DNA of 64,000 bases, from IMG/VR virus record IMGVR_UViG_3300031414_000005; one strand, 5' to 3'. Of this stretch, positions 4,793-27,612 are shown piece after piece. The notes under the pieces are model-generated. The model made no database searches, was not told the DNA's origin, and saw only the letters and a list, made by a program, of their open reading frames with translations. A program made the translations under genes and the position numbers. Each line of letters opens with the position of its first letter. The stretch's first letter is position 1. The DNA is from a virus (Duplodnaviria > Caudoviricetes).

Positions 4793-6334
4793 ATGCCTAG
4801 ATACATTGTGGATATTCCAGAGGTCTATCGGTCGGTGACTCGCCCGGTGAATCTGGAGGTATCCCGCCAGCTAATGAAATGGTTGGGGTTGACCGGAAAT
4901 GAAATGATTGTCTACAACGGTGACAATGATTCGTTCCCCCTCCCCAATGCCAGCATAGATGACCAAGGCAGCGCCGAAGTCAACCGCCTGTCGTCGAACA
5001 ATAAACTGTTTATTACCACCGAGGAAATCGAATCCCCCCAAACCGGCTTTGAAGTTAACTACCGGAATAAAGCATACCCCGCTGTTTTTCTCGACGAGAG
5101 AACCCAAGTGTATGTCGCCCCAATTTACGCGCACGTCTTTGTGACGGTGAGTATGACCAAGCGTTTTCATTCTCGTAGCGAAGCCCTTCGCTGGCGTAAC
5201 CGGGTGGAATCGATCTTAAACCGGAATTTCATCAACCCGAACCACACGGTGCAATACCACTATCCGTTGCCGATGAATCTGCTCTACTTGCTGGACGAGG
5301 TGTGGAAACGGCGTGAGCGTGTGGCACCGTACGGCGAAGACATCAACACCTACTTTAAAAATCATTTCACGGATGAGATGACGGTGATTGCGAACATGGC
5401 CGGTACGGAACCGTTCTTTGCCATTCGTGAAACCCAGGCCAACATCATTGGTAACCTGGAGTTCACCCGCACCCCGTATCCGGTGAAAGCGTCAGCTTAC
5501 GGCAGTTACGAGTATTCCTTTACGTACCGGTTTGAGTACGACCGCATCAGCAACCTGTCGGTGGAATACCCGTTAATGGTGCACAACCAGTTCTTACCTC
5601 GTGAGTTGTTACCGGTGGAAGCCAAGACCAACTTCGAGATTGAACCAGGGTATGACATCCAGATGCAATACCTGCGTAAGCACTTGCACCCTAAAGCGGG
5701 TCCATTAGCGTCAGTGCCACCGGGCTTTTACGTGGAGCCGTATTTTGACAGTTGGTTAATCCCGCGTGAAGACCCGATGTTGGTGCCGCAGTATCAGACG
5801 TTGCTGGCCGTGGAAGAAACGAATCAGAAAACCATCCTGACCCTGACCGACCTCGGGGATTACCAGTTGTTCCCAGAGTTTCTGGATTATGTTCGACACT
5901 GTGGTAACCGGGTGTTTGTGCGACACAGCTCCCTTGTACACATCCAGGTGTTCTCGAACACGATTCCGATTGACAATGAGAAGCTCACCCTGGACCCAGT
6001 CACGACCAACGTGGACTGTTTGTTTGACATGAACCTGCGACATGAGTACCGCCTGGTGTTGAACCTTGACACTAACCTTGCGGGCCTCACCGCTGACGCC
6101 ATCGATGACCTGTTGGAACACGGGTGGTGGTTGCAGCTGATTATTGGAACGTTGTATCCCGGTGCAGAGAAAACCGATTGGTGGCCGATCCCGGATTCCA
6201 ATGGACATGTGAGTCAGGATCAGTGGGTCGAGATCATCAACCATTTCCCGGACTACACCACGGCTGGCGGTTACGAATTGAACTTCGTGTTGTCGCGGAT
6301 GTTGTTTAGCATTATTGCAAAGAGATCTAACTAA
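4793..6334 (+). CDS. Putative virion structural protein (phiKZ-like)
   Basis: 513 aa ORF with GGAG RBS; aromatic/Pro-rich composition; structural-gene context. Confidence 0.5.
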   Translation: MPRYIVDIPEVYRSVTRPVNLEVSRQLMKWLGLTGNEMIVYNGDNDSFPLPNASIDDQGSAEVNRLSSNNKLFITTEEIESPQTGFEVNYRNKAYPAVFLDERTQVYVAPIYAHVFVTVSMTKRFHSRSEALRWRNRVESILNRNFINPNHTVQYHYPLPMNLLYLLDEVWKRRERVAPYGEDINTYFKNHFTDEMTVIANMAGTEPFFAIRETQANIIGNLEFTRTPYPVKASAYGSYEYSFTYRFEYDRISNLSVEYPLMVHNQFLPRELLPVEAKTNFEIEPGYDIQMQYLRKHLHPKAGPLASVPPGFYVEPYFDSWLIPREDPMLVPQYQTLLAVEETNQKTILTLTDLGDYQLFPEFLDYVRHCGNRVFVRHSSLVHIQVFSNTIPIDNEKLTLDPVTTNVDCLFDMNLRHEYRLVLNLDTNLAGLTADAIDDLLEHGWWLQLIIGTLYPGAEKTDWWPIPDSNGHVSQDQWVEIINHFPDYTTAGGYELNFVLSRMLFSIIAKRSN

Positions 6335-7998
6335 TGGCAATCGCAAAGTTTCCCAGTGATGACGAACATCGTCACACGAACAAAGTTGAGCAACCTGCTA
6401 TTGAACCACCCAGCTACAGTTCCACGTTAACCGATGCACGGTACAAACCGCTGCGCACCCTGGTTGCGAACATGGCGGGTCGGTCCTGGTTGGTGGAGTA
6501 TTACCGGCAACTGTTAGGTAAAGACGAAGAACCGATTGCGCAGCAGGTCGGTGACCTCGCCCCCTATCAGCAGTACCAGCGTATTCGTAACTTTGAGTTG
6601 CGCGTCCAAACACCACTGACCCGTAACCTGATACCGAACCAGGGGGAAACCGAAATCAGCGGCGAAGCGTACATGCTGCCATGCGGATTTGCCCCGAATG
6701 TCGGTGACATGTTTATCACCGATGTCGGTGACGGGAACCTGGGGGTGTTTGTGATTCGGGGTACGCCGGAACCGATGTCGATGTTCAAAGACACCGCGTA
6801 CCGTATCGAATACATGATGACCAGCTACCTCAGCCGGTCATTGCGTGATGATTTGATCAAGAAGACCATCGTAGACAGCGTGTATGACCTCCAGAGCCTG
6901 CAATACGGTCGTAACCCGATCATTGGCAAGGATGAATACAATCGCCGCGAGTCGCTGTCTGAAGCGCGAGAATCGATGGTGTTCCATTACATGGATAATT
7001 TCTATTATTATCCAGAGCAAACCCTGGCTGTCCCGAATCAGGCGTTCCCGACGTATGACCCGTTCCTGGTGAGCTTTGTTTACCAGGCAATCGATTACTC
7101 GATCAAGACCCACGGTCGTCCTATCAGTCAGCTGAATACCGGGGATTACCGGAACTTCGGCCGAAACAATGATGCGACCCTGTGGGATGCGGTGATGCGC
7201 CGTGATGCCCGTGTGTTGCGTTATGCGTTGCGCTCGATGGGGATTGCTGGTCGGAAGTCATACCAGAGCAGTGGGTTGTTTAACTCCATTGCCAATTCGA
7301 AGTTTGAAAACGTGGTACGCCAGGCCAGTCGGGATTATGTCTTTGTGTTTGCAGACATCCTGACCGGGGTGAATGAACTGCACACCGATGTCGGGACCCC
7401 GTATTCACTCAGTCCGGGTGATGTGCTGTCCACCATGGTGCCGCGGGGATATGCCCCACAAGCCATTCCGGGTTACCGCATTCGTTACTACGAGAAAGTG
7501 GTTCACAATGACAAGGTGAAAATGAAGGTGGTGTATGAAGCCATCGACCCGACCGCCTTGGACCCGGAAATCGAAAGTTTCGATGACCTGTTGCAACCCA
7601 TCAAACTTAACCCCGCCCCAACCGCGGTGATTCCTGGGGTAAACCCCCCTCCTGTTGTTACCACCCCGGTGGACGGCAACCTGTATGACGACTTGTACCA
7701 ACCCATGTACATGATCGTGGACGGGGGCGACACTCGTCTGCTGTTCCCTGCCACGTTGTCGGTGAAAGACTACTACGTCCTGACCGCTGCGTTTTATAAC
7801 GGCCAGTTGTCAGAGATGTCGATTCTGGAAGCGCAGGTGTGGGACTTGATTCACAACCGACCACTGGACCATGACAAGGTGCAGATGTTGCTGGCCCGTT
7901 ACTATGACCTGACTGCCACGGCACAGTTCTACTACGGTCCGTTACTGATCACCCTGGCAGAAGCCGCCAGTTACCAGAACAATGCGGTCATGCCGTAA
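6334..7998 (+). CDS. Putative virion structural protein (phiKZ-like)
   Basis: 554 aa; TAATG coupling to the upstream gene; structural-gene context. Confidence 0.5.
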   Translation: MAIAKFPSDDEHRHTNKVEQPAIEPPSYSSTLTDARYKPLRTLVANMAGRSWLVEYYRQLLGKDEEPIAQQVGDLAPYQQYQRIRNFELRVQTPLTRNLIPNQGETEISGEAYMLPCGFAPNVGDMFITDVGDGNLGVFVIRGTPEPMSMFKDTAYRIEYMMTSYLSRSLRDDLIKKTIVDSVYDLQSLQYGRNPIIGKDEYNRRESLSEARESMVFHYMDNFYYYPEQTLAVPNQAFPTYDPFLVSFVYQAIDYSIKTHGRPISQLNTGDYRNFGRNNDATLWDAVMRRDARVLRYALRSMGIAGRKSYQSSGLFNSIANSKFENVVRQASRDYVFVFADILTGVNELHTDVGTPYSLSPGDVLSTMVPRGYAPQAIPGYRIRYYEKVVHNDKVKMKVVYEAIDPTALDPEIESFDDLLQPIKLNPAPTAVIPGVNPPPVVTTPVDGNLYDDLYQPMYMIVDGGDTRLLFPATLSVKDYYVLTAAFYNGQLSEMSILEAQVWDLIHNRPLDHDKVQMLLARYYDLTATAQFYYGPLLITLAEAASYQNNAVMP

Positions 7999-9995: not shown

Positions 9996-10015
9996 ACACC
10001 TATATTACCGTGGTG
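9996..10015 (+). promoter_or_regulatory. Early (virion RNAP) promoter, TATATTAC core
   Basis: acaccTATATTACcgtgGTG, core at 10001-10008; matches the phiKZ early consensus; upstream of a small-gene operon. Confidence 0.7.
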
Positions 10016-13269: not shown

Positions 13270-14817
13270 TTAGATATCTTCGTCGAAACCGTTCCAGTCT
13301 GCTGCGCCACCTTCACCCATCGGTTTGTGCTTGTAGCTACGACGGGACATATCCTGACCGTGGATGTCATCAAGGATACCAATCCCACGTTCAAACTTGT
13401 ACACACAGAACTTGTCTTTCTGTGGCGTCACAGAAATGGTACGGTGTTTACCACCCTGGATGCACAGGTAAGATTCATCACCGACACGGAGTACTTGGAT
13501 GAGGATTTCAACGTCAACCTCATGGTCGACCTTAGAAGACGCATCCCAATAGCCTTTACCCACGCACTCTTTGAGCAGGTCCTCCTCTTGCCCTTGACGC
13601 AACATCTGCTTAGCTTGCGGCGACAGCTGATGCGGGGTCATGAACGTGATGCCACGCGCAGAACAGAAGTTACGACTACGGCGGAACAGGTCAACGGTTT
13701 CCTGACCCATTACCCCACGCTCACAACCTTCTTTGGTGAACATGTTGAGGTAGTCAATACAGAGCATGTGGATTTCATAACCCAATGACTCATAATACTT
13801 GATACGCTCAAACAGGTTACGGTAACCAAAGATCGACGGGTTAACACGGCAGAAGTTGAACTCGTAACCCATCTTCGAGAACTCTTCACGGACCACACGT
13901 GCTGCTTCTTCTTCATCTACCTCGGCATGGTTGAAATCCTGACCGGTGGCATTGGCCATGATCTGTTTCCACCACAGCACAATGTTATCGGTGGGGTTGT
14001 TCTCAGCTGAGATGTGCATGATCATCGGCTTCTTAGTCGGATCACGCATGTACGGCACGTTCAGGGTACAGATCTGCCGTGTCAGGTTCATGGTGAACCC
14101 GGATTTGTTGTGGTGTTGTAATGCCCCTACCACAATACATTCACCCCGACGGAAACCCCCGACTTCACCTAACAGCCGGTTAACACCTTGCCAACCTGTT
14201 TTGAGGACACCTTTGTCTGACGATTCTTCTTTGGCTTGTTTGAAAAGATCCTGTACTTTATCTGTTTGTGAAACGGACATCTCGGCGACGACCGCCGGGT
14301 CACTGTAATCTTTGACGTTACCGGTGTTGAGTGATTCTATTTCGGTGAGCAGGGAGGCAATCGCACTGTCCATGTCCACGTCTTCGGACTGATAGATAAT
14401 CGGTGCCGATAAACGCTTGATGGCTTCACGCAGCTTACGGTGACCATCCCACTTGCGCAGCTCACGCATTAAGCCTAAGGTCTGACGTTTGGTTTGCACG
14501 GCATCGGAGTTGATCACGGTGCCCAGTTCTAAGGAGTCGTACAGTTTACCGTTCTCGCCACAATCGGTGGCCAGACGTTGTAACAAGTTGGTGCGTTCGA
14601 TCGGTTCATCAACTTTGGCTTCACACATCCAGCGAATGGTACGTCGCAATGCTATGTGAACAGAATTCATATTCTCGTTGCCTATCGAATCGTTAGGCAG
14701 TGGCAATGTCTCGATTAAATCCAGTACATAATCTCGGTTACCGTTGTTCCCTTCTCCGATCTGGGATTCTTGGTATAACAGCGTGATAATCTTAATGAGG
14801 ACTAATGTACTATCCAT
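13270..14817 (-). CDS. dnaB: DnaB-like replicative helicase (phiKZ gp118-like)
   Basis: 515 aa; LKTGWQGVNRLLG, GGFRRGECIVVGALQHHNKS (variant Walker A), MLCIDYL (Walker B), TPHQLS; divergent from the capsid block as in phiKZ-like phages. Confidence 0.85.
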   Translation of the reverse strand: MDSTLVLIKIITLLYQESQIGEGNNGNRDYVLDLIETLPLPNDSIGNENMNSVHIALRRTIRWMCEAKVDEPIERTNLLQRLATDCGENGKLYDSLELGTVINSDAVQTKRQTLGLMRELRKWDGHRKLREAIKRLSAPIIYQSEDVDMDSAIASLLTEIESLNTGNVKDYSDPAVVAEMSVSQTDKVQDLFKQAKEESSDKGVLKTGWQGVNRLLGEVGGFRRGECIVVGALQHHNKSGFTMNLTRQICTLNVPYMRDPTKKPMIMHISAENNPTDNIVLWWKQIMANATGQDFNHAEVDEEEAARVVREEFSKMGYEFNFCRVNPSIFGYRNLFERIKYYESLGYEIHMLCIDYLNMFTKEGCERGVMGQETVDLFRRSRNFCSARGITFMTPHQLSPQAKQMLRQGQEEDLLKECVGKGYWDASSKVDHEVDVEILIQVLRVGDESYLCIQGGKHRTISVTPQKDKFCVYKFERGIGILDDIHGQDMSRRSYKHKPMGEGGAADWNGFDEDI

Positions 14818-17860: not shown

Positions 17861-17881
17861 CAGACCTATATTACCTACGTG
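17861..17881 (+). promoter_or_regulatory. Early promoter, TATATTAC core
   Basis: cagaccTATATTACctacGTG, core at 17867-17874; upstream of the operon containing the nvRNAP subunit. Confidence 0.75.
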
Positions 17882-20780: not shown

Positions 20781-23087
20781 ATGACTAATAACTATAGCGC
20801 TGGTAGCATCTGGTCCCAACCGAACACCCCAACCCGTTTGTTGGATGACAAAGCGTTTCAGGATAATGCCTTCAAAGTCGTTACTGCCCGCCTTAACGAA
20901 TTGGCTAACGTCAATGCGCTGGGCGCGCTGGTGTACAACAAAGCCCGTAATAACGAAGCCTACATCCGTAACATCCTGACGTTCACCGGCTTGTTTGTCG
21001 AGTTCGGTCTGTCAATGGAACCGGGTATTGACCGTGCTCGTCTGCTGGCCATGTGTGTCACAGATGTGCTGGATATCCATGCGATTCAGGAATTGAAACA
21101 ACCCAACCAGTCTAACCTGCAATTCCAGATCTCTGGTGATGCATACCGTTACTTCGTCAACCGTGCAGCCAAACTGCAACAAAAGATGGATGCGGTGGTG
21201 CAACGCAATAACCTCGGGATCACCATGAACCTTCAGCTGCAAGGCGGAAGCGGTAACGGCCATGCTGGCGTCGCGATGAACAACCAGCGTTCGTCCAGCG
21301 ACCTGATGTGGGGTGTTGGCGGTAACGGTAACAGCGACAACGGCTGGGGTGGTGTTGAACCCGCTACGCAGCGTACACGCAGTGTGAGCGAACTTTACTT
21401 TGATAATGTGGCGCTGGGTGCAGGTATGGACTCGCCGTCACGGGGATTGAACGTGAAGACAAGTGTAATTGACAGTCTGTTTCAGGATTCGGAAAAAGCG
21501 CTGGGTAACCGCCGCCCATCCGACACCACCATTCAAGCCAATGACAACGGCGCCGCACCGGATCTGTTTGACTGGGGTGAAAAGAAAACCTCCAGCCATA
21601 AAGACCACGGGGTGTATGACGAGTTTAACTCCGACAACCTGATTCAGGATATGGAAGCCAAACCGTATCAGGAGGAAACCGCGTCTGACCTGTGGGATTG
21701 GACCCTGGGCATGGATGAGAACGATGCGGATGCCTTTGATTACAGCGGGCGTGATCTGCAACCGGCACCTGATCATGTTGTGCAGAGCGCCAGCAAAATG
21801 CAAGCGGCTCATACCCCGGCGGCAAAACCCCAACAGGAGGTGGAGACAGAGCAGGGTGATCGTCATATCAAGGATGGTTGGTATCTGTCGAACCCGGACA
21901 ACTGGCAGGAGGTGTTTGCCAAAGCACCGCGTAATGCAGCACAACCGTTTAACCTCACCCTCCCGCTGAAAGGCACCCGTTTGTACCGTCGTAACACTGA
22001 CGGCACGCTCACCCAACGTTTGGTGGATATTCCGATGGAACGTTTTAACCACAACCCGGCTGAACTGCTGGGAACCACACAGACCGCTGAAGAGTTTGAC
22101 GAACCCCTGCGTTTGACCCAGCCGATTTTCCTGTCGGATGCGATCATCAAAGCAGAAGGCGACAAGCCAAAGCGGGTGAACAGTGAATACCTGAAAGAAA
22201 CCGCCGACACGAATAAAATCCAGTCGCTGGTTGATGAGCAGTTAATCACTGGGTTCAGCGATGCTGAACTGACTGTGCGGGCGTTGGCACGCAGCCACAA
22301 AGCCGTGAAGGAAATCAAAGCCCAGGGTACCGCAGGTGTTAACGTGGAGTACACCCTGGAGAAAGCGGACCTGCTGCACATCGCCGGTGACGCTGACGAC
22401 TTCCTGCACAAAGTATCGTTCCTGACTCAAGGTAGCGAGGACCAATTCAAAAACTATCTTGACTTTGCTCTGCGCTTCATTGAACTGGAAGGAGCGATTC
22501 ATCATGATGTCTACAGCAAACTGGATAAACACCTGCTGCGCGTGGTCAACGACTTCCTGACGTATGACCTGGCCTACGAAGGTAAACTGGCACTGGAGTA
22601 TTCCTTTGCTGGCGAATTCGTTGAACTGTGTGAATACCTGAACCGCAAAGACCCTGATGCGCTTAAGCTGCTGCAAACCCACTGTGATGAGTTGCTGTCC
22701 CGTAGTCGGATTGTGGCGAGTGCAGCTCAGACAGAACGTCTGCGCAAGATCTTCCTGAGCCGTATTGCGAAAGCAGAATACGATTCAGCCCTGGAGATCA
22801 TGGCGAACGCCGTGTTCTCTGTGGAACACCACCTGATTATCCGCAGCGGTTTGAAAGCGGATGCCTTTGGTGTTGATGTGGATTCTGCGCCGGGTGACCA
22901 GATTGTGATGAAGCAGTCTGCGTATCCAAACACCCTGAAGATGTTGTATTCATCAATGGCCCGCACCACCAAGCAGCTGGCTGATGGTGTGTTCTTCAAT
23001 ATCCGTTTCATCACTGCTGATGGCTTTAGCTTCACAGGACACGAAACGGTGATGGCTGATGATGTACTGATTCTGGCACGTCGTTAA
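20781..23087 (+). CDS. Large hypothetical protein with a disordered acidic middle
   Basis: 768 aa; polar/acidic low-complexity region between two apparently folded regions. Confidence 0.6.
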   Translation: MTNNYSAGSIWSQPNTPTRLLDDKAFQDNAFKVVTARLNELANVNALGALVYNKARNNEAYIRNILTFTGLFVEFGLSMEPGIDRARLLAMCVTDVLDIHAIQELKQPNQSNLQFQISGDAYRYFVNRAAKLQQKMDAVVQRNNLGITMNLQLQGGSGNGHAGVAMNNQRSSSDLMWGVGGNGNSDNGWGGVEPATQRTRSVSELYFDNVALGAGMDSPSRGLNVKTSVIDSLFQDSEKALGNRRPSDTTIQANDNGAAPDLFDWGEKKTSSHKDHGVYDEFNSDNLIQDMEAKPYQEETASDLWDWTLGMDENDADAFDYSGRDLQPAPDHVVQSASKMQAAHTPAAKPQQEVETEQGDRHIKDGWYLSNPDNWQEVFAKAPRNAAQPFNLTLPLKGTRLYRRNTDGTLTQRLVDIPMERFNHNPAELLGTTQTAEEFDEPLRLTQPIFLSDAIIKAEGDKPKRVNSEYLKETADTNKIQSLVDEQLITGFSDAELTVRALARSHKAVKEIKAQGTAGVNVEYTLEKADLLHIAGDADDFLHKVSFLTQGSEDQFKNYLDFALRFIELEGAIHHDVYSKLDKHLLRVVNDFLTYDLAYEGKLALEYSFAGEFVELCEYLNRKDPDALKLLQTHCDELLSRSRIVASAAQTERLRKIFLSRIAKAEYDSALEIMANAVFSVEHHLIIRSGLKADAFGVDVDSAPGDQIVMKQSAYPNTLKMLYSSMARTTKQLADGVFFNIRFITADGFSFTGHETVMADDVLILARR

Positions 23088-23097
23088 TCCCCCAATT

Positions 23098-23124
23098 GAG
23101 GAGAGCTTCGGCTCTCCTCTTTTT
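23098..23124 (+). terminator. Intrinsic terminator
   Basis: gaggagagc TTCG gctctcctc TTTTT. Confidence 0.85.
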
Positions 23125-23158
23125 AACGCACTTTTAATTTTTAGATTACAGGCGGTTT

Positions 23159-23179
23159 CAAGTCTATATAACCATTGTG
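23159..23179 (+). promoter_or_regulatory. Early promoter variant
   Basis: caagtcTATATAACcattGTG, core at 23165-23172; upstream of the tagged membrane-protein array. Confidence 0.6.
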
Positions 23180-23226
23180 ACATAGAGCAATAGTGCTCTT
23201 TCCTTTAAAACTAATGAGGTATCATC

Positions 23227-23691
23227 ATGGCTGGTAACGTAAACTTTGACGCAAACAACAACGTAGCAACTGGTTCTAAAGCTGTCCGTAACAACGGTCT
23301 GGGTCTGATCGCCGGTACTGTGGTCGGTGGTGCACTGGGTTATGCTCTGGGTAACACCATTGAGAACAAAGTCGGTCGCTACGCATCACACACTTTCACC
23401 ACCCTGAACATCATCGCCGGTGGTTCTATGGCGGGTATGATGTTGCGTTTCAAAGGTGAAGTCGGCGCACTGGTTGACATGATCGCTGCCGGTACCGATG
23501 AGAAAGATCTGCCTGCTTCTCTGAAATCCTCACCTGTAACGAACTTTGCTTATGGCTTTGGTCTGGGTGTCGGTGCAGGTGCGGGTTGTGCTGCGGTCGC
23601 TGCGGTGATCCGCCATGCTACCAAAGACGGTGTGGTTGTAGAAGCGGACAACGTCACCATCATCGAAACCAACAACGTGGATGAGATCTAA
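23227..23691 (+). CDS. Small membrane protein, tagged array member 1 (MAGNVNFD...)
   Basis: 154 aa; GAGG RBS; three Gly-rich hydrophobic segments. Confidence 0.7.
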   Translation: MAGNVNFDANNNVATGSKAVRNNGLGLIAGTVVGGALGYALGNTIENKVGRYASHTFTTLNIIAGGSMAGMMLRFKGEVGALVDMIAAGTDEKDLPASLKSSPVTNFAYGFGLGVGAGAGCAAVAAVIRHATKDGVVVEADNVTIIETNNVDEI

Positions 23692-24074
23692 TGGCCGGGA
23701 ACGTACAGTTTGATAAAGATAACCAACCCAGCGTGCAACAGCAACATCGCCGCCTGGGTAACGTTGTAAAGATCGGTGGCATGCTGACGGTGGGGTTGGG
23801 TGCTTACAGTGCTGCGAAGTGCCCTAGCCCGGTTACACGCGGCCTGATGCTGGCAAGCTGTGTTGTGGGTGGGTACTTCGTCAACCACATGGGGAATGTC
23901 ATCCAACACATCGGCGACCAACCGGATGCCGAAGCGTTTGACCCTGCGCTGTATTGGCAACTTGGCTTTGCCAGCACTCTACCAATCTGGGGTGTGGGGA
24001 TGGCTAAAGCCTATCTGATGCTGTCAGGTAAACCCGACTTAGCGGAAGTCCTGGGAGTGGAGGAAGAAATATGA
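23691..24074 (+). CDS. Small membrane protein, tagged array member 2 (MAGNVQFD...)
   Basis: 127 aa; TAATG coupling; three hydrophobic segments. Confidence 0.7.
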   Translation: MAGNVQFDKDNQPSVQQQHRRLGNVVKIGGMLTVGLGAYSAAKCPSPVTRGLMLASCVVGGYFVNHMGNVIQHIGDQPDAEAFDPALYWQLGFASTLPIWGVGMAKAYLMLSGKPDLAEVLGVEEEI

Positions 24075-24454
24075 GTGGACAGCTACAGTTCGATAAGCAC
24101 AACGTCCCAAAAGCGGTTAAGGAACAAGCCAAAAAGAATGCAGGGAATGCAAGAAACATTGGATATCTGACAGTGACTGCCGCTGGGACGTCCAATGCGA
24201 TTGTGATTGAACAAACAACCAGCGGTCATTGGCGGGCCGCCGCACACGTCGTCAATGTCGCAACCAGCGCATTCATGGCAAATCAAATCAACAAACGCAG
24301 TGAAACAGAACTCACCCGACTGGTGCTGGAAGACCAGGTCATGTTGGATAAATACCAACACGTTAATGCTGAAGTCCTGCTGCAACATGTGCTCCCGGCA
24401 TTGACGGTGGGCGTGGCAGGGCTCGGCTATCTCTTAGGCAAACGAGGAACATAA
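24071..24454 (+). CDS. Small membrane-associated protein, tagged array member 3 (MSGQLQFD...)
   Basis: 127 aa; ATGA coupling, GGAGG RBS; hydrophobic C-terminal helix. Confidence 0.7.
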   Translation: MSGQLQFDKHNVPKAVKEQAKKNAGNARNIGYLTVTAAGTSNAIVIEQTTSGHWRAAAHVVNVATSAFMANQINKRSETELTRLVLEDQVMLDKYQHVNAEVLLQHVLPALTVGVAGLGYLLGKRGT

Positions 24455-24456
24455 TC

Positions 24457-24663
24457 ATGGCAGGTAGCGTAAACTTCGATCTGGGTAACAAACCAAAATT
24501 CCTGAAAGAGGAATCGGACACTAAAAAGATGTGCAGCGCGGCGGTAACTATCGCCGTGAGTGCAGGTCTGGCAACGTCAAGCAGTTCACTGATCCGGGCG
24601 ATCGGTTTCGGTGGCATTGTAGTTGGTGGTGTTGATCTTTATAACGGATATCACGGAAAATAA
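24457..24663 (+). CDS. Small membrane protein, tagged array member 4 (MAGSVNFD...)
   Basis: 68 aa; GAGG RBS; two hydrophobic segments. Confidence 0.7.
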   Translation: MAGSVNFDLGNKPKFLKEESDTKKMCSAAVTIAVSAGLATSSSSLIRAIGFGGIVVGGVDLYNGYHGK

Positions 24664-24673
24664 GCCACGCATT

Positions 24674-24721
24674 AAAGAGGAGGAGCCATTGGCTCCTCCT
24701 CAGCGATGGTTATTTTTTTTT
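24674..24721. terminator. Bidirectional terminator at a convergent junction
   Basis: gaggaggagcc att ggctcctcctc (24677-24701), T-run at 24713-24721. Confidence 0.75.
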
Positions 24722-24729
24722 GCTTTCAA

Positions 24730-27612
24730 CTACACGATGGTGCCGCCTCCTGGCGCTTTGTTTTCATCATCCTCTTCATTCTCCCCGTCGGTGTTCTCGT
24801 CATCCACGTCATCGGCTGGCGGAGTATCGTCCGGATTGTTCTCATCGGCGTTGTCACCCTCATTCAATGCACCCTCATCGAAGTTGAGGTCACCTTCATT
24901 GTTGTCATCTGCCGGTAGTGCGGCGTCATCCGCGTTTTCATCCGGCACTGGCTCCGTTGGGGTGAGCTTGTCCACCTTCGGCTTAAACTTCTTCGCGATG
25001 GTGTTCTTGTTGGAAACGTAATCCAACATCGCGGTGGCCATGGTTTCATCGAAATCGTTGATCGCCTGGAAGAACTCCTCCATCCGCGTTTCATCATCCG
25101 CACTGATAAACGGCAGGATGTCATCAGCCATGTTGTGTTTGATCATCCAATCACGCAACAGCTTACGGCGAATATCCTCACGGAAGGAATCATACCCTTC
25201 CTGATCCAGGGTAGGCAGAATCATGCGAATCGCATTATCCGGGAAGAATGCATCCACTTTCTGTTGGATTTCGGTTACCTGGTTCTCGACCATGGTCCGG
25301 CGTTTCTCAGAAGCTTTATCCACTTCTGGGCGTGGCAGGCTCACGTCGATAGAGGCAATGAACTCCGTCAGGATCACCGACACCTGATCCCGGTCTTCCT
25401 GGTTGAGTTCCCCATTCAGTTCGGAATCACTCGTCTTAACAGCCGCGACAGCTTTTCCTTTTCTGGCTTTGTCCTTTTTCTGAGCTTCCCGACCTTTCTT
25501 ACCGGACGCTTGCCACAGGGTTTTATTCTCCTGGATTTCTTCGACCAGCTTCGCTCGCAGCGCACCTGATTTCAGTGCATACTTGCGCATGAAGTCAGCC
25601 AGGAACACACACAGACGTTTCTGCCAGATAATACACTGCTTCACCATCATCTCGGCGTCTTGCAGCATTTCAGTGGCGAACTGCACGTCGTTGTCTGAAT
25701 CTAACCATTGTGGTTTCAAGTACCAACCTAATGCTTGCTGGTTCTTGAAGAAGCGCTGGATGTCTTCACTCGGGGCCACCACTTGACGCTGGGTTTGGGT
25801 CAGGTTCATATCCGGGCTAGGGATATAGTCGCTGCCTTCCAGTTTCACGGTGGTGCTCGACGCGGCCATCAGGTTCATGATGTCTGCCGGTGACTGCATC
25901 CCCACGACCCGGGATACCGAGGTGTTGGAGTTGAAGTACAGCGTCAGGGCATCTTCGATCGTACCTTCCGGGTCGGTGTCTTCTTCTTCCAGACGGATAC
26001 CAAGCTCCGTGTGGTTGATCGAGTTTTCCAGGTTAGCGTTGACCGACGCCAGCATCAATGCAATACGGGCCGACGTGTACATCTTGGTCTGGTCTAATAA
26101 GGAAGCACCAATCCCCAGACGGTTATAGTCGAACGCCATATAGGTAATGGCTTCAGCTGGCACATACAGCACACGGGTACCTTGTTTACGGCAGGTGCGT
26201 GCCCACATCACCCGAGAGATCTCGTTAGACATGGTGACCGACACCATCTTACCGTATGTACCGTTGGCCACATAGGTAATCAGATCGCGTTCCAACTCCT
26301 GCACATACTTGACGTAGAACTCACGCATGTCGAAGTTGACTTCGGTGCCGCCGCTCTGCACCTGCTGAGCCATGGCAATTACACCCTGCTCTGCCGTCGA
26401 CGCAGTGCCGCCACCTTCCGAGGATGCTTTCTGTTGCAAGTCCATCAGGTCTTGATAGTAGTCAGCATCTTTGGTGGTCTTCAGGAAGTTCCCTTCCTCA
26501 TCCAGCAACAGGTAGTACCCGACGTGCACCGTGTTGTCGCCGGGCACATGTACTGGGATCACCGCTTCCGAAGGAACATGGTGTACCAGCGGATGGCTGT
26601 ACGGGTCGTTGTTGTACTGCGCGTCACGCGGCAGGGTCAACACCCCGTCTTCGGTCTTGCGGTACTCACGGTTCTTATAGAGGCTGTCATACACCTCCGC
26701 GATTTGGTCTTCGGTCAGGGACAACGTTTTGGCTTTCTTGTCCTCATTAGCCTCCATCCCTGGCGTGTGAATGGCAGCACGACGTTGATGGGATTGGGTG
26801 GCTTTCACCGTCCGGCGGGTGGCCATGTGACGGTTAAAGTTATGCAGCGACAATACGGCTGTGTTATCGGTGACCCGGATAAACGATTGATCTTCACCAA
26901 ACACCCGGCTGTCATCAATCTTTACACCGCTGTCGTTAAACAGGTCTTCCAGACCAAAACTGGTTTTCGTCTTGGTGCGCGGCCCTAAAATCCCTGTAGG
27001 GCGGAAGTCTTTCACCTGCATGTCCAGATCGGCATCGGTGTACTGCTTGATCGACTCCAACCCACCGGTGACGTAACCGTTGATTACGTTGTCGAGCGAA
27101 CTCTGTGACAGCACCAGATACACCCATGAACCCTTACGGAACAGGATGTCATCGACCATCTGTGGCAGCTTCTCTTCTATTTTATAGTCCGATTGGAAGT
27201 GGGCTTTTACCACCTCAATCAGTTTCTTTGAGAGCTCAATGTTTTTCGTTGGGTAGTTGGTTGTGTCGTAGGCCAACCCACTATTGCCAAAATCGTTGGG
27301 AGAGATCAGTACACTCTGCCAGATGTTGGAAGCCAGCTTAGCGTCCGGCAGTAACTCCATGACGTTGGTGTTGGAATCGATGTTGTTTGAGACGATACGT
27401 GACAGACGTTCCAGCTTGGCACGGCTGATACTCTGCTTAGACAGTTTGCGCCACGCATCACGCCCGCTACTGCGACCACCTCGACTTCCCTGGCCATCAT
27501 CACGCACGAGCTGACTGATGATACGGGCAGCCGCTGGATCCTTTTTCATCATCTCGACTTTCGGGATTCTTGCGTGTTCCGTGCCGGGACGATTTAACAG
27601 TTGGTTACCCAT
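24730..27612 (-). CDS. Probable portal protein (phiKZ gp129-like)
   Basis: 960 aa; N-terminal region with GGLE/S, FGLE/D, PGME/A motifs; PSEAVIPVH...GYYLLLDEEG segment; acidic C-tail; divergent from a ~730-aa structural gene as in phiKZ-like genomes. Confidence 0.7.
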   Translation of the reverse strand: MGNQLLNRPGTEHARIPKVEMMKKDPAAARIISQLVRDDGQGSRGGRSSGRDAWRKLSKQSISRAKLERLSRIVSNNIDSNTNVMELLPDAKLASNIWQSVLISPNDFGNSGLAYDTTNYPTKNIELSKKLIEVVKAHFQSDYKIEEKLPQMVDDILFRKGSWVYLVLSQSSLDNVINGYVTGGLESIKQYTDADLDMQVKDFRPTGILGPRTKTKTSFGLEDLFNDSGVKIDDSRVFGEDQSFIRVTDNTAVLSLHNFNRHMATRRTVKATQSHQRRAAIHTPGMEANEDKKAKTLSLTEDQIAEVYDSLYKNREYRKTEDGVLTLPRDAQYNNDPYSHPLVHHVPSEAVIPVHVPGDNTVHVGYYLLLDEEGNFLKTTKDADYYQDLMDLQQKASSEGGGTASTAEQGVIAMAQQVQSGGTEVNFDMREFYVKYVQELERDLITYVANGTYGKMVSVTMSNEISRVMWARTCRKQGTRVLYVPAEAITYMAFDYNRLGIGASLLDQTKMYTSARIALMLASVNANLENSINHTELGIRLEEEDTDPEGTIEDALTLYFNSNTSVSRVVGMQSPADIMNLMAASSTTVKLEGSDYIPSPDMNLTQTQRQVVAPSEDIQRFFKNQQALGWYLKPQWLDSDNDVQFATEMLQDAEMMVKQCIIWQKRLCVFLADFMRKYALKSGALRAKLVEEIQENKTLWQASGKKGREAQKKDKARKGKAVAAVKTSDSELNGELNQEDRDQVSVILTEFIASIDVSLPRPEVDKASEKRRTMVENQVTEIQQKVDAFFPDNAIRMILPTLDQEGYDSFREDIRRKLLRDWMIKHNMADDILPFISADDETRMEEFFQAINDFDETMATAMLDYVSNKNTIAKKFKPKVDKLTPTEPVPDENADDAALPADDNNEGDLNFDEGALNEGDNADENNPDDTPPADDVDDENTDGENEEDDENKAPGGGTIV

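Follow-up and report, generated by a model that had tools for sequence, protein, structure and literature searches.

Why should four adjacent, translationally coupled genes of a jumbo phage encode small proteins that begin with almost the same short peptide and then appear to have nothing else in common? The question is raised by a cassette at positions 23227-24663 of the window, by which we mean the whole stretch of 64,000 nucleotides that was analysed (IMG/VR record IMGVR_UViG_3300031414_000005), where the four genes, A to D, lie between a putative early-type promoter and a strong hairpin. The phage is a nucleus-forming jumbo phage of the Chimalliviridae, in which chimallin (a match to PF25677 with 90.7 bits against a cut-off of 27), a phiKZ-type major capsid protein and a portal protein are all present, and its host is probably a plant-associated enterobacterium. 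The portal gene is the direct neighbour of the cassette, and the major capsid gene is not far away (PhiKZ_MCP adjoins the orthologous cassette), while the operon immediately upstream, which comprises a 387-aa gene, a polymerase-subunit gene and a 768-aa gene, is non-structural. Homologues of the portal gene are annotated as portal or virion protein in jumbo phages of Erwinia, Proteus and Salmonella. The features of the region are as follows.

20781..23087, plus strand: upstream neighbour of 768 aa, function without assignment, homologue of Ea35-70 gene 004
23098..23119, plus strand: terminator hairpin of the upstream early operon (9-bp stem, then TTTTT)
23141..23151, plus strand: putative upstream promoter element TTAGATTACAG, whose exact form occurs solely here and upstream of paralogue E (see below)
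23164..23173, plus strand: putative early-class core promoter CTATATAACC, a variant of the 10-mer CTATATTACC
23184..23199, plus strand: 5'UTR hairpin AGAGCAATAGTGCTCT, kept in L004 and L005
23227..23691, plus strand: gene A (154 aa), with the tag (13 codons, 23227-23265), a linker, three Gly/Ala-rich hydrophobic segments and an acidic tail ending in DEI
23691..24074, plus strand: gene B (127 aa), with the tag (13 codons, 23691-23729), three weakly hydrophobic segments and a tail ending in EEI
24071..24454, plus strand: gene C (127 aa), with the tag (13 codons, 24071-24109), two polar-hydrophobic segments and a C-terminal hydrophobic anchor ending in KRGT
24457..24663, plus strand: gene D (68 aa, the short form), with the tag (13 codons, 24457-24495) and two Gly/Ala-rich segments
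24677..24701, both strands: bidirectional terminator hairpin with an 11-bp GC-rich stem, common to the cassette and the convergent portal gene
24730..27612, minus strand: downstream convergent neighbour, the portal protein (phrog_3004, E 3e-207)

The cassette genes are real and constrained. All four ORFs and their junctions, TAATG for A/B, ATGA for B/C and a 2-nt gap for C/D, are present as claimed in the first-pass annotation, which had been made from the sequence alone, and a ribosome site of GAGG/GGAG type lies 6-9 nt 5' of each gene. Comparison of two natural strains gave 27 synonymous and 5 non-synonymous differences, which, together with the silent codon variation within the tag, indicates selection on the proteins. 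The orthologues of A are 87% and 59% identical to it, and C is the best-conserved member (76-95% in orthologues, with P0014 as a 58% variant); moreover, the same four-gene cassette is kept in two metagenomic relatives. Metatranscriptome contigs from two studies include short pieces across the A/B and B/C junctions, which are not usable as proof of transcription because another piece crosses a paralogous promoter and DNA carry-over is possible.

The block had been described as a self-contained unit with an early-type promoter at 23165 and a terminator at 24677, and both elements were found. The core promoter CTATATAACC is a variant of CTATATTACC. Of this 10-mer, 6 exact copies were counted where about 0.4 are expected, each of them intergenic and on the coding strand, and further variants lie upstream of the chimallin gene and of the polymerase-subunit operon. 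The core fits the early-promoter motif of jumbo-phage virion RNA polymerases, an AT-rich motif of about 10 nt near -10 (PMC7598289), and the literature supports assignment to the early class (PMC7598289, PMC8244752). To judge from this motif, the cassette promoter belongs to the early class and the proteins are probably expressed early. The upstream element in the form TTAGAWTRCAG is found at five promoters, each time 12 nt ahead of the core, and is kept in L004 and L005. In addition, the hairpin AGAGCAATAGTGCTCT has a near-identical copy in the 5'UTR at genome position 190968, and the equivalent of paralogue E has a z of -3.9. This paralogue is a fifth, monocistronic copy in the genome, about 70 kb from the cassette, with a homologous promoter and 5'UTR, and is preceded by a terminator hairpin of the same type as that at 23098..23119; the homologous promoter and 5'UTR of A and E point to duplication of the whole unit. 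At the other end of the cassette, the hairpin at 24677-24701 folds with -28 and -27 kcal/mol on the two strands (z -6.4; 0 of 200 shuffles fold as well), and it was missed by a simple terminator scan since the T-run is not adjacent.

The N-termini of the four proteins read as quoted in the first-pass annotation, and the tag, of 11-13 residues, has the consensus M-[ASG]-G-x-[VIL]-[NQ]-F-D-x-x-N. Among 15 family sequences, there is no variation at M1, G3, F7 and N11, only V, I or L occur at position 5, and positions 6 (N/Q) and 8 (D) are each kept in 13 of the 15. The conserved residues are coded by differing codons (including AGT and TCC for Ser), and the strain differences inside the tags, at 24079 and 24477, are both synonymous; the constraint thus acts on the peptide, as had been argued from the codon differences. 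When 830 ORFs of the genome were screened, the tag set was the sole multi-member group with 7-9 of the first 14 residues alike. In hhalign comparisons between subfamilies with the tag kept, 11 of 15 pairs reached 37-89% probability over the first 11-70 columns and the other four 0.6-23%, while without the first 13 residues every subfamily pair fell below 5%. By these profile alignments, the tag is the only sequence common to bodies that are otherwise unalignable.

The same data bear on the possibility that the tag is a relic of paralogy, that is, that the proteins are diverged duplicates whose N-terminus is kept for translation start, membrane insertion, topology or helix capping and binds nothing. 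The segment layout is the same in all members, the duplication of the unit of A and E fits such a relic, and the identity among orthologues is 38-100% in the tag against 55-98% in the body, the tag of the B and D orthologues being no more conserved than the body. On the other hand, four invariant and three near-invariant positions are maintained across bodies that hhalign cannot relate, and in two phage lineages with only 30% identity between their portals; the synonymous variation in the tag speaks against a constraint at the RNA level, and ordinary small membrane proteins do not need such a peptide. We consider this explanation unlikely.

As for the bodies, all members have the same build, in which the tag is followed by a Lys/Arg linker of 10-15 residues and then by two or three weakly hydrophobic Gly/Ala-rich segments, and three members carry [DE]EI at the C-terminus. 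The Gly/Ala-rich runs claimed earlier were found in protein A, at residues 30-42 and 110-120. The description of the four as membrane proteins holds in part: weakly hydrophobic segments are present in all of them, but the hydrophobicity is moderate (KD19 maxima of 1.3-1.8, with B never reaching 1.2), so that a membrane nature is likely yet not proven for B and C, which are marginal. The shared build makes it most likely that the members are inserted in the inner membrane of the host, their N-termini facing the cytoplasm, although their charge distribution does not fix the topology. AlphaFold2 models of A and C (pLDDT 47 and 45) were too poor for a fold search and give weak evidence in which residues 1-20 of A are unstructured, with low confidence, and residues 4-8 of C form a low-confidence strand. 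The look-alikes of A and C in the ESM Atlas were assorted helical membrane proteins and of no use (highest feature score 0.78, highest TM 0.54), and a complex prediction for A+B+C+D, run without controls, scored 0.00, which counts neither for nor against a complex. Inspection by eye led to the rejection of sliding-clamp-binding, PIP-box, Tat, lipobox and prepilin motifs, as the key positions misfit.

Such a build raises the possibility of co-assembly, in which the tags would pair as short Asn-rich beta-strands and bring the proteins into one mixed glycine-zipper oligomer, a pore or scaffold whose subunits are supplied by the operon. The coupling of the four genes with overlapping stops and starts is consistent with it, and so are a glycine-zipper-like composition typical of oligomeric membrane helices (seen in sub-threshold Pfam matches), the alternating V-x-F pattern of the tag together with the strand predicted in C, and the finding that no external accessory partner co-occurs with the tag. 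The distribution of the tag argues the other way. Besides paralogue E, which is transcribed separately, there is one further member, X, which occurs as a single copy in G001, a distant AH04-like chimallivirus; a lone member in G001 and a separate E mean that a fixed hetero-oligomer is not required, and we regard co-assembly as rather unlikely. The earlier claim of one operon for the tagged set is likewise to be modified: the four coupled genes stand, but a fifth copy lies elsewhere in the genome and one more in another phage.

Member X is also informative about what the tag may act on. Its tag is attached to a body that cannot be aligned, and this in a distant chimallivirus, which argues for a partner that both phages have; the tag is absent from the relatives AH04, Kc263 and OBP. 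Altogether 79 ORFs of G001 have homologues in the genome studied here, and 79/79 also have homologues in the tag-less AH04, so that the tag is not accompanied by a dedicated accessory partner or enzyme. Furthermore, the neighbours of X in G001, searched against this genome, had no homologues. A search for chimallin in G001 with Pfam and with the chimallin of the present phage came back empty, which is a failure of sensitivity, since its relative AH04 is annotated with a nuclear shell protein. These results weigh on the idea of a sorting or processing leader, that is, a peptide serving as an address or recognition site for an insertion, cleavage or modification machine. Its layout resembles that of leaders on diversified cargo, such as the T4 capsid-targeting sequence (PMC9026906) and bacteriocin leaders. 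Against it, the two tag-bearing phages have no enzyme or accessory gene that accompanies the tag, the tag is not followed by a conserved cleavage motif, double-glycine or other (positions 12-15 are N/Q/V/K, V/P/L and K/S/T), and terminal signal sequences are reportedly not used for nuclear import in chimalliviruses (PMC12908238). We think such a leader decidedly unlikely.

The family was further sought in databases. An exhaustive profile search of 1.84 billion proteins gave no match outside the family, sequence searches of Pfam, PHROGs, NCBIfam and PDB yielded sub-threshold matches at most, tblastn of A, E, X and a 262-aa EEI protein against 50,697 phage records, a set that may lack records close to this genome, gave nothing real, and megablast of the cassette gave no match. 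A degenerate-pattern scan of IMG/VR for the tag returned 19 stretches, of which the G001 gene was the only real one. A pattern scan of genome contigs for a host protein with the same N-terminus returned at least 120 stretches, about the number expected by chance, and among the matches listed none combined the tag with a hydrophobic body; an ATP-synthase-epsilon-like N-terminus among them was taken as chance. The description of the RisingSun/Joad phages mentions no matching family or motif, and no relationship to them emerged. By these searches the family is very narrowly distributed and matches no known family. Thus the outcome that the first-pass annotation had named as contrary to its view, an ordinary known paralogue family with no special conservation of the tag, is not what was found.

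Taken together, we assume, with a probability of about 0.35, that the tag is a short docking peptide by which early membrane proteins of different build all reach the same partner. The cassette and E would form a new, narrowly distributed family of small proteins made early in infection, and their tag, with its few fixed positions, alternating hydrophobic pattern and extended shape, would act as a short linear docking motif for the same binding site in every case, on either a host protein or one of the core proteins of the phage, the partner probably not being a tag-specific accessory phage gene. This reading is favoured by the SLiM-like constraint on the tag: among orthologues only positions 1, 3, 5, 7, 8 and 11 are fixed and the remainder turn over. 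Against it, the shared architecture fits plain paralogy with an intrinsically constrained N-terminus equally, and the coupled translation of the four genes fits the subunits of one complex too. The original proposal of a shared targeting or assembly peptide on diversified proteins is thus a reasonable one, as the tag is the only shared sequence and is kept at the peptide level, but the specific roles named with it, a pore, an exclusion complex or a component of the early-infection vesicle, found no support.

Two other roles would draw on the early expression and on the nature of the phage. A shared N-terminus might mark these early proteins so that a protease or unfoldase removes them after the early phase. 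The early promoter class speaks for this, and so does the exposed N-terminal tail of the predicted membrane proteins, which is 21-29 residues long and probably unstructured; the tag does not resemble known degrons, the case is purely circumstantial, and we judge such a timer very unlikely. Alternatively, the tag might be a sorting or templating signal peculiar to nucleus-forming phages. As an address label, it would direct new small membrane proteins to the lipid vesicle that encloses the injected genome, a vesicle whose channels are still unidentified in chimalliviruses (PMC12908238), or dock them on the nascent chimallin shell; as a RHIM-like Asn-rich beta-zipper, it would co-polymerise the paralogues. 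The RHIM profile of Pfam was not listed for A-D at E up to 1, a result to be read with the caution that HMMER filters can drop very weak matches. We see very little chance that either version is correct.

The first-pass annotation knew of no described system with this layout, which is too strong, because the T4 capsid-targeting sequence (CTS; PMC9026906) and bacteriocin leaders have the same layout. In T4, an N-terminal peptide of roughly 10 residues directs divergent small proteins (IPI, IPII and IPIII) to the prohead (Mullaney and Black 1996, reviewed in PMC9026906). The likeness extends to the few functional positions and to a set of proteins that varies between related phages. The CTS proteins, however, are soluble, basic, destined for the prohead and cut after Glu by the prohead protease, whereas the cassette proteins are hydrophobic, have an early-class promoter and no conserved cleavage site, and show no sequence similarity to them. 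If the tag had the same function, the proteins would be packed into the prohead and injected, and their hydrophobic bodies would act on the membrane at entry. The common layout is in line with this, as is the proximity of the cassette to the portal and major capsid genes, but the promoter is of the early class that it has in common with chimallin and a polymerase subunit, the operon just upstream is not structural, and in other chimalliviruses the same slot holds unrelated genes. Moreover, no [S/A/G]-x-E protease site or other Glu site is conserved after the tag, and W_A, all C, D and X are without any. We give virion targeting hardly any credence.

Double-glycine leaders of class II and glycine-zipper bacteriocins likewise precede diversified Gly-rich peptides that are encoded side by side. 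The cassette differs from them in that its tag has no Gly-Gly motif, its bodies are of 55-150 residues with several segments, and it is an early operon of a lytic phage; in addition, no C39-peptidase ABC exporter was seen near it, the neighbours being the 768-aa protein and the portal. The Pfam glycine-zipper families PF13488 (Gly-zipper_Omp) and PF05433 (Rick_17kDa_Anti) resemble the cassette proteins in having GxxxG-type Gly/Ala-rich helices in small proteins, but are without such an N-terminal tag. Residues 18-48 of protein A match them weakly (16.6 bits against a gathering threshold of 25 for PF13488, and 15.8 against 24.2 bits for PF05433), and B, C, D, E and X do not match either. Finally, gene 130 of Erwinia phage AH04 and a protein of Kosakonia phage Kc263 occupy the same slot, between a gene of about 780 aa and the convergent portal, and contain three weakly hydrophobic segments rich in Gly/Ala as well as an acidic C-terminus, but they lack the tag and have no detectable homology to the cassette (hhalign probability 0.3%).

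The family with the tag is therefore new, and the shared-leader layout is not unprecedented. To our knowledge, almost nothing is known about the small early membrane proteins of chimalliviruses, and no linear targeting signal is known for them. Here two distant phage lineages keep a peptide with about seven constrained positions on six bodies that are otherwise unrelated, and with this peptide as a reporter fusion or as bait the partner should be directly identifiable. If the tag were only an intrinsic folding or insertion element, the proteins would be a lineage-restricted orphan family of modest interest, while co-assembly of the proteins would mean a new membrane complex built by the phage. 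Should the tag be a sorting or templating signal, the Chimalliviridae would have their first described linear signal for targeting or assembly. If the partner is a component of the host envelope or of host defence, the diversified bodies would point to an arms-race module.

The four coupled genes of the cassette (A to D, window 23227-24663) are as described in the first-pass annotation, with products of 154, 127, 127 and 68 aa and junctions of TAATG, ATGA and a 2-nt gap, and each is preceded by a ribosome-binding site of its own. The 3' end of the cassette is an 11-bp GC hairpin common to the convergent portal gene. Scanning the whole genome for the motif in six frames revealed a fifth paralogue, E, with the same N-terminal tag (11-13 residues, M-[ASG]-G-x-[VIL]-[NQ]-F-D-x-x-N):

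genome 110786-110283 (stretch L002, 4284-4787), minus strand: gene E, 167 aa

The N-terminus of E is MAGSINFSANNTV. The gene is monocistronic and lies ~70 kb from the cassette, with the chimallin gene 2.4 kb upstream of it. Its promoter and 5'UTR are collinear (homologous) with those of gene A, and both upstream regions contain a TTTAGATTACAG element, the early-class promoter core and an equivalent 5'UTR hairpin. The gene following E encodes 146 aa, with a hydrophobic segment at the N-terminus.

The window corresponds to positions 1-63976, read on the reverse strand, of a 232,948-bp IMG/VR record with direct terminal repeats. Judged by its genes, the phage is a nucleus-forming jumbo phage, since it encodes chimallin (PF25677, 90.7 bits) and a portal of the phiKZ type (phrog_3004, E 3e-207), and a phiKZ-type major capsid gene adjoins the orthologous cassette of a relative. 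For this portal, the best cultured relatives are jumbo phages of Erwinia, Proteus and Salmonella, with just 31-36% identity. Near-identical DNA occurs in metagenomes from ~13 studies (phyllosphere, soil, fermentation and viral).

The same four genes are found at the same place in two metagenomic relatives (87% and 59% identity for A). Moreover, a further member, X (115 aa, N-terminus MSGSINFDKDNNV), adjoins the ribonucleotide reductase beta gene of G001, a 264-kb phage whose portal is 30% identical to that of the studied phage and 88% to that of AH04, a chimallivirus of Erwinia billingiae of leaf origin. No GenBank phage has X, including AH04, Kc263 and OBP. When 1.84 billion representative proteins were searched exhaustively with a profile, the hits were limited to the six clusters of the family itself and one spurious repeat protein; from 5.8 billion proteins, a word-seeded search retrieved one additional, divergent orthologue of C. 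A pattern scan of IMG/VR gave no other tag bearer; in that of 185,579 prokaryote genomes, neither another tag bearer nor a host protein starting like the tag was among the matches listed. As far as these searches reach, the family extends beyond the operon yet is very narrow, and is new and without relatives. In G001, X is flanked by two genes of ~160 aa (5485-5991 and 6864-7340 of stretch L003), each starting MAKK(S/T), which look like mutual paralogues and have no homologue in the studied genome.

Profile-profile comparison found the six subfamilies similar at the N-terminus only, every pair falling below 5% probability once the first 13 residues are cut off. Among 15 sequences, M1, G3, F7 and N11 are invariant, position 5 is V/I/L, position 2 is A/S/G, and N/Q at position 6 and D at position 8 each occur in 13. 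The conserved residues differ in codon use, non-adjacent Ser codons included, so a constraint on the RNA or DNA itself is ruled out. Between two natural strains (~98.5% identical), A-D carry 27 synonymous versus 5 non-synonymous differences, and both of those within tags are silent. Selection, as read from these comparisons, acts on the tag peptide. Among orthologues, the variable tag positions change at least as fast as the bodies, as expected of a short linear motif that depends on few critical positions. That the tag reflects an intrinsic constraint within a diverged paralogue family seems to us unlikely, and that it is a degron still more so. In a genome-wide ORF comparison, no other group of ORFs shared N-termini in this way. 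Two adjoining ORFs at genome 230934 and 231648 (plus strand; 232 and 391 aa) match at 8 of the first 14 positions (MLEAMLMCKKK / MLEMMLSLKKKK), which probably reflects ordinary tandem duplication.

Each member starts with a tail of 21-29 residues, made up of the tag and a linker with 2-6 Lys/Arg; behind it come a weakly hydrophobic, Gly/Ala-rich first segment (~residues 22-46) and, after a short loop, a second one. A third segment, separated by a loop of 32-39 residues, is present in A, B, C and E, and A, B and E close with an acidic tail ending in [DE]EI. Hydrophobicity is moderate (KD19 maxima 1.3-2.05, B never reaching 1.2), charge bias does not settle the topology, and glycine-zipper Pfam families gave sub-threshold matches to A only. 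Based on this build, the hydrophobicity and the Pfam matches, the members are probably membrane proteins of the glycine-zipper kind. AlphaFold2 models of A (pLDDT 47) and C (pLDDT 45) are of low confidence; the former is all-helical with an unstructured N-terminus, and the latter has a strand at residues 4-8. A tag serving as a sorting or processing leader is a doubtful alternative, slightly less probable than the intrinsic constraint. The C-terminal [DE][DE]I occurs in five ORFs versus ~0.2 expected for ~250 genes, and is possibly a second shared short motif:

window 23689-23691, plus strand: ending of A
window 24072-24074, plus strand: ending of B
stretch L002: ending of E
genome 181750-180854 (stretch L031, 1855-2751), minus strand: 262/298-aa acidic protein with a single C-terminal Gly-zipper segment, without homologues in GenBank phages
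window 13270-14817, minus strand: DnaB-like helicase, closing FDEDI

The promoter elements are as follows:

window 23164-23173, plus strand: core promoter CTATATAACC, a variant of CTATATTACC
window 10000-10009, plus strand: exact copy of CTATATTACC
window 17866-17875, plus strand: exact copy of CTATATTACC
window 23141-23151: TTAGAWTRCAG element
genome ~110873, 181977, 185246 and 190993, minus strand: TTAGAWTRCAG promoters

CTATATTACC has six exact copies versus ~0.4 expected, all coding-strand and intergenic and usually just 3' of a hairpin; that at 17866-17875 lies between the major capsid gene and a 387-aa/polymerase-subunit/768-aa operon. In jumbo phages that carry virion RNA polymerases, a conserved AT-rich element of ~10 nt is located near -10 of early genes (PMC7598289), and an early promoter of this type precedes the chimallin gene of phiKZ (PMC8244752). 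Read from its promoter motif, the early expression class of the cassette is well founded, since core variants precede the chimallin gene and the polymerase-subunit (phrog_2943) operon immediately upstream of the cassette, in agreement with this literature. TTAGAWTRCAG stands 12 nt upstream of the core at five promoters, those of the cassette and E among them. This sub-class also bears a short 5'UTR hairpin, and several of its promoters drive operons with small proteins bearing hydrophobic segments (the cassette, E and its neighbour, a 262-aa/156-aa/120-aa operon and a 104-aa protein). A metatranscriptome contig of 258 nt, recorded for window 23160-23197, corresponds to the paralogous promoter/5'UTR at genome 190968 and reaches upstream of the presumed start site, which points to either read-through transcription or carry-over of DNA into the RNA library.

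As a kind of arrangement, divergent small phage proteins that carry a short N-terminal peptide for addressing or docking are already known. The T4 capsid-targeting sequence is the closest described layout (PMC9026906) and glycine-zipper small membrane proteins are closest in composition, but in each case tested defining features speak against membership. Against a T4-style capsid-targeting set, which was rejected, stand the lack of a conserved protease site behind the tag, the early-class promoter and the non-structural character of the upstream operon; in addition, Ea35-70 and AH04 carry unrelated genes in the slot between the ~780-aa gene and the portal. Virion loading as the role of the tag is very improbable. 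The same portal-adjacent slot is occupied in AH04 (gene 130; stretch L176, 18302-18847) and in Kosakonia phage Kc263 (78084-78449) by a gene for a protein of 181 aa, which has an acidic C-terminus and three weakly hydrophobic segments rich in Gly/Ala. This protein lacks the tag and shows no detectable homology to the family (hhalign 0.3%); in position and composition it may be an analogue. An enzyme-linked tag was also rejected: when all 723 ORFs of G001 were compared with the studied genome and AH04, every one with a homologue in the former (79/79) also had one in the tag-less AH04, so nothing accessory travels with the tag.

The reading we favour, at a probability of about 0.35, is that the tag is a short docking peptide, through which diversified early membrane bodies would reach one shared site on a host or core-phage protein. 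This reading is based on the few fixed positions, the extended alternating V-x-F pattern, the exposed tail next to the first hydrophobic segment, the retention of the tag on six unalignable bodies in two distant phages of related hosts, and the lack of a co-travelling gene. The main rival is tag-to-tag co-assembly into a mixed oligomer, which we consider less probable; although the translational coupling of the cassette genes favours it, X and E each stand alone and do not require it. Should the tag turn out to direct sorting or assembly during the chimallivirus infection cycle, the finding would be of high interest.
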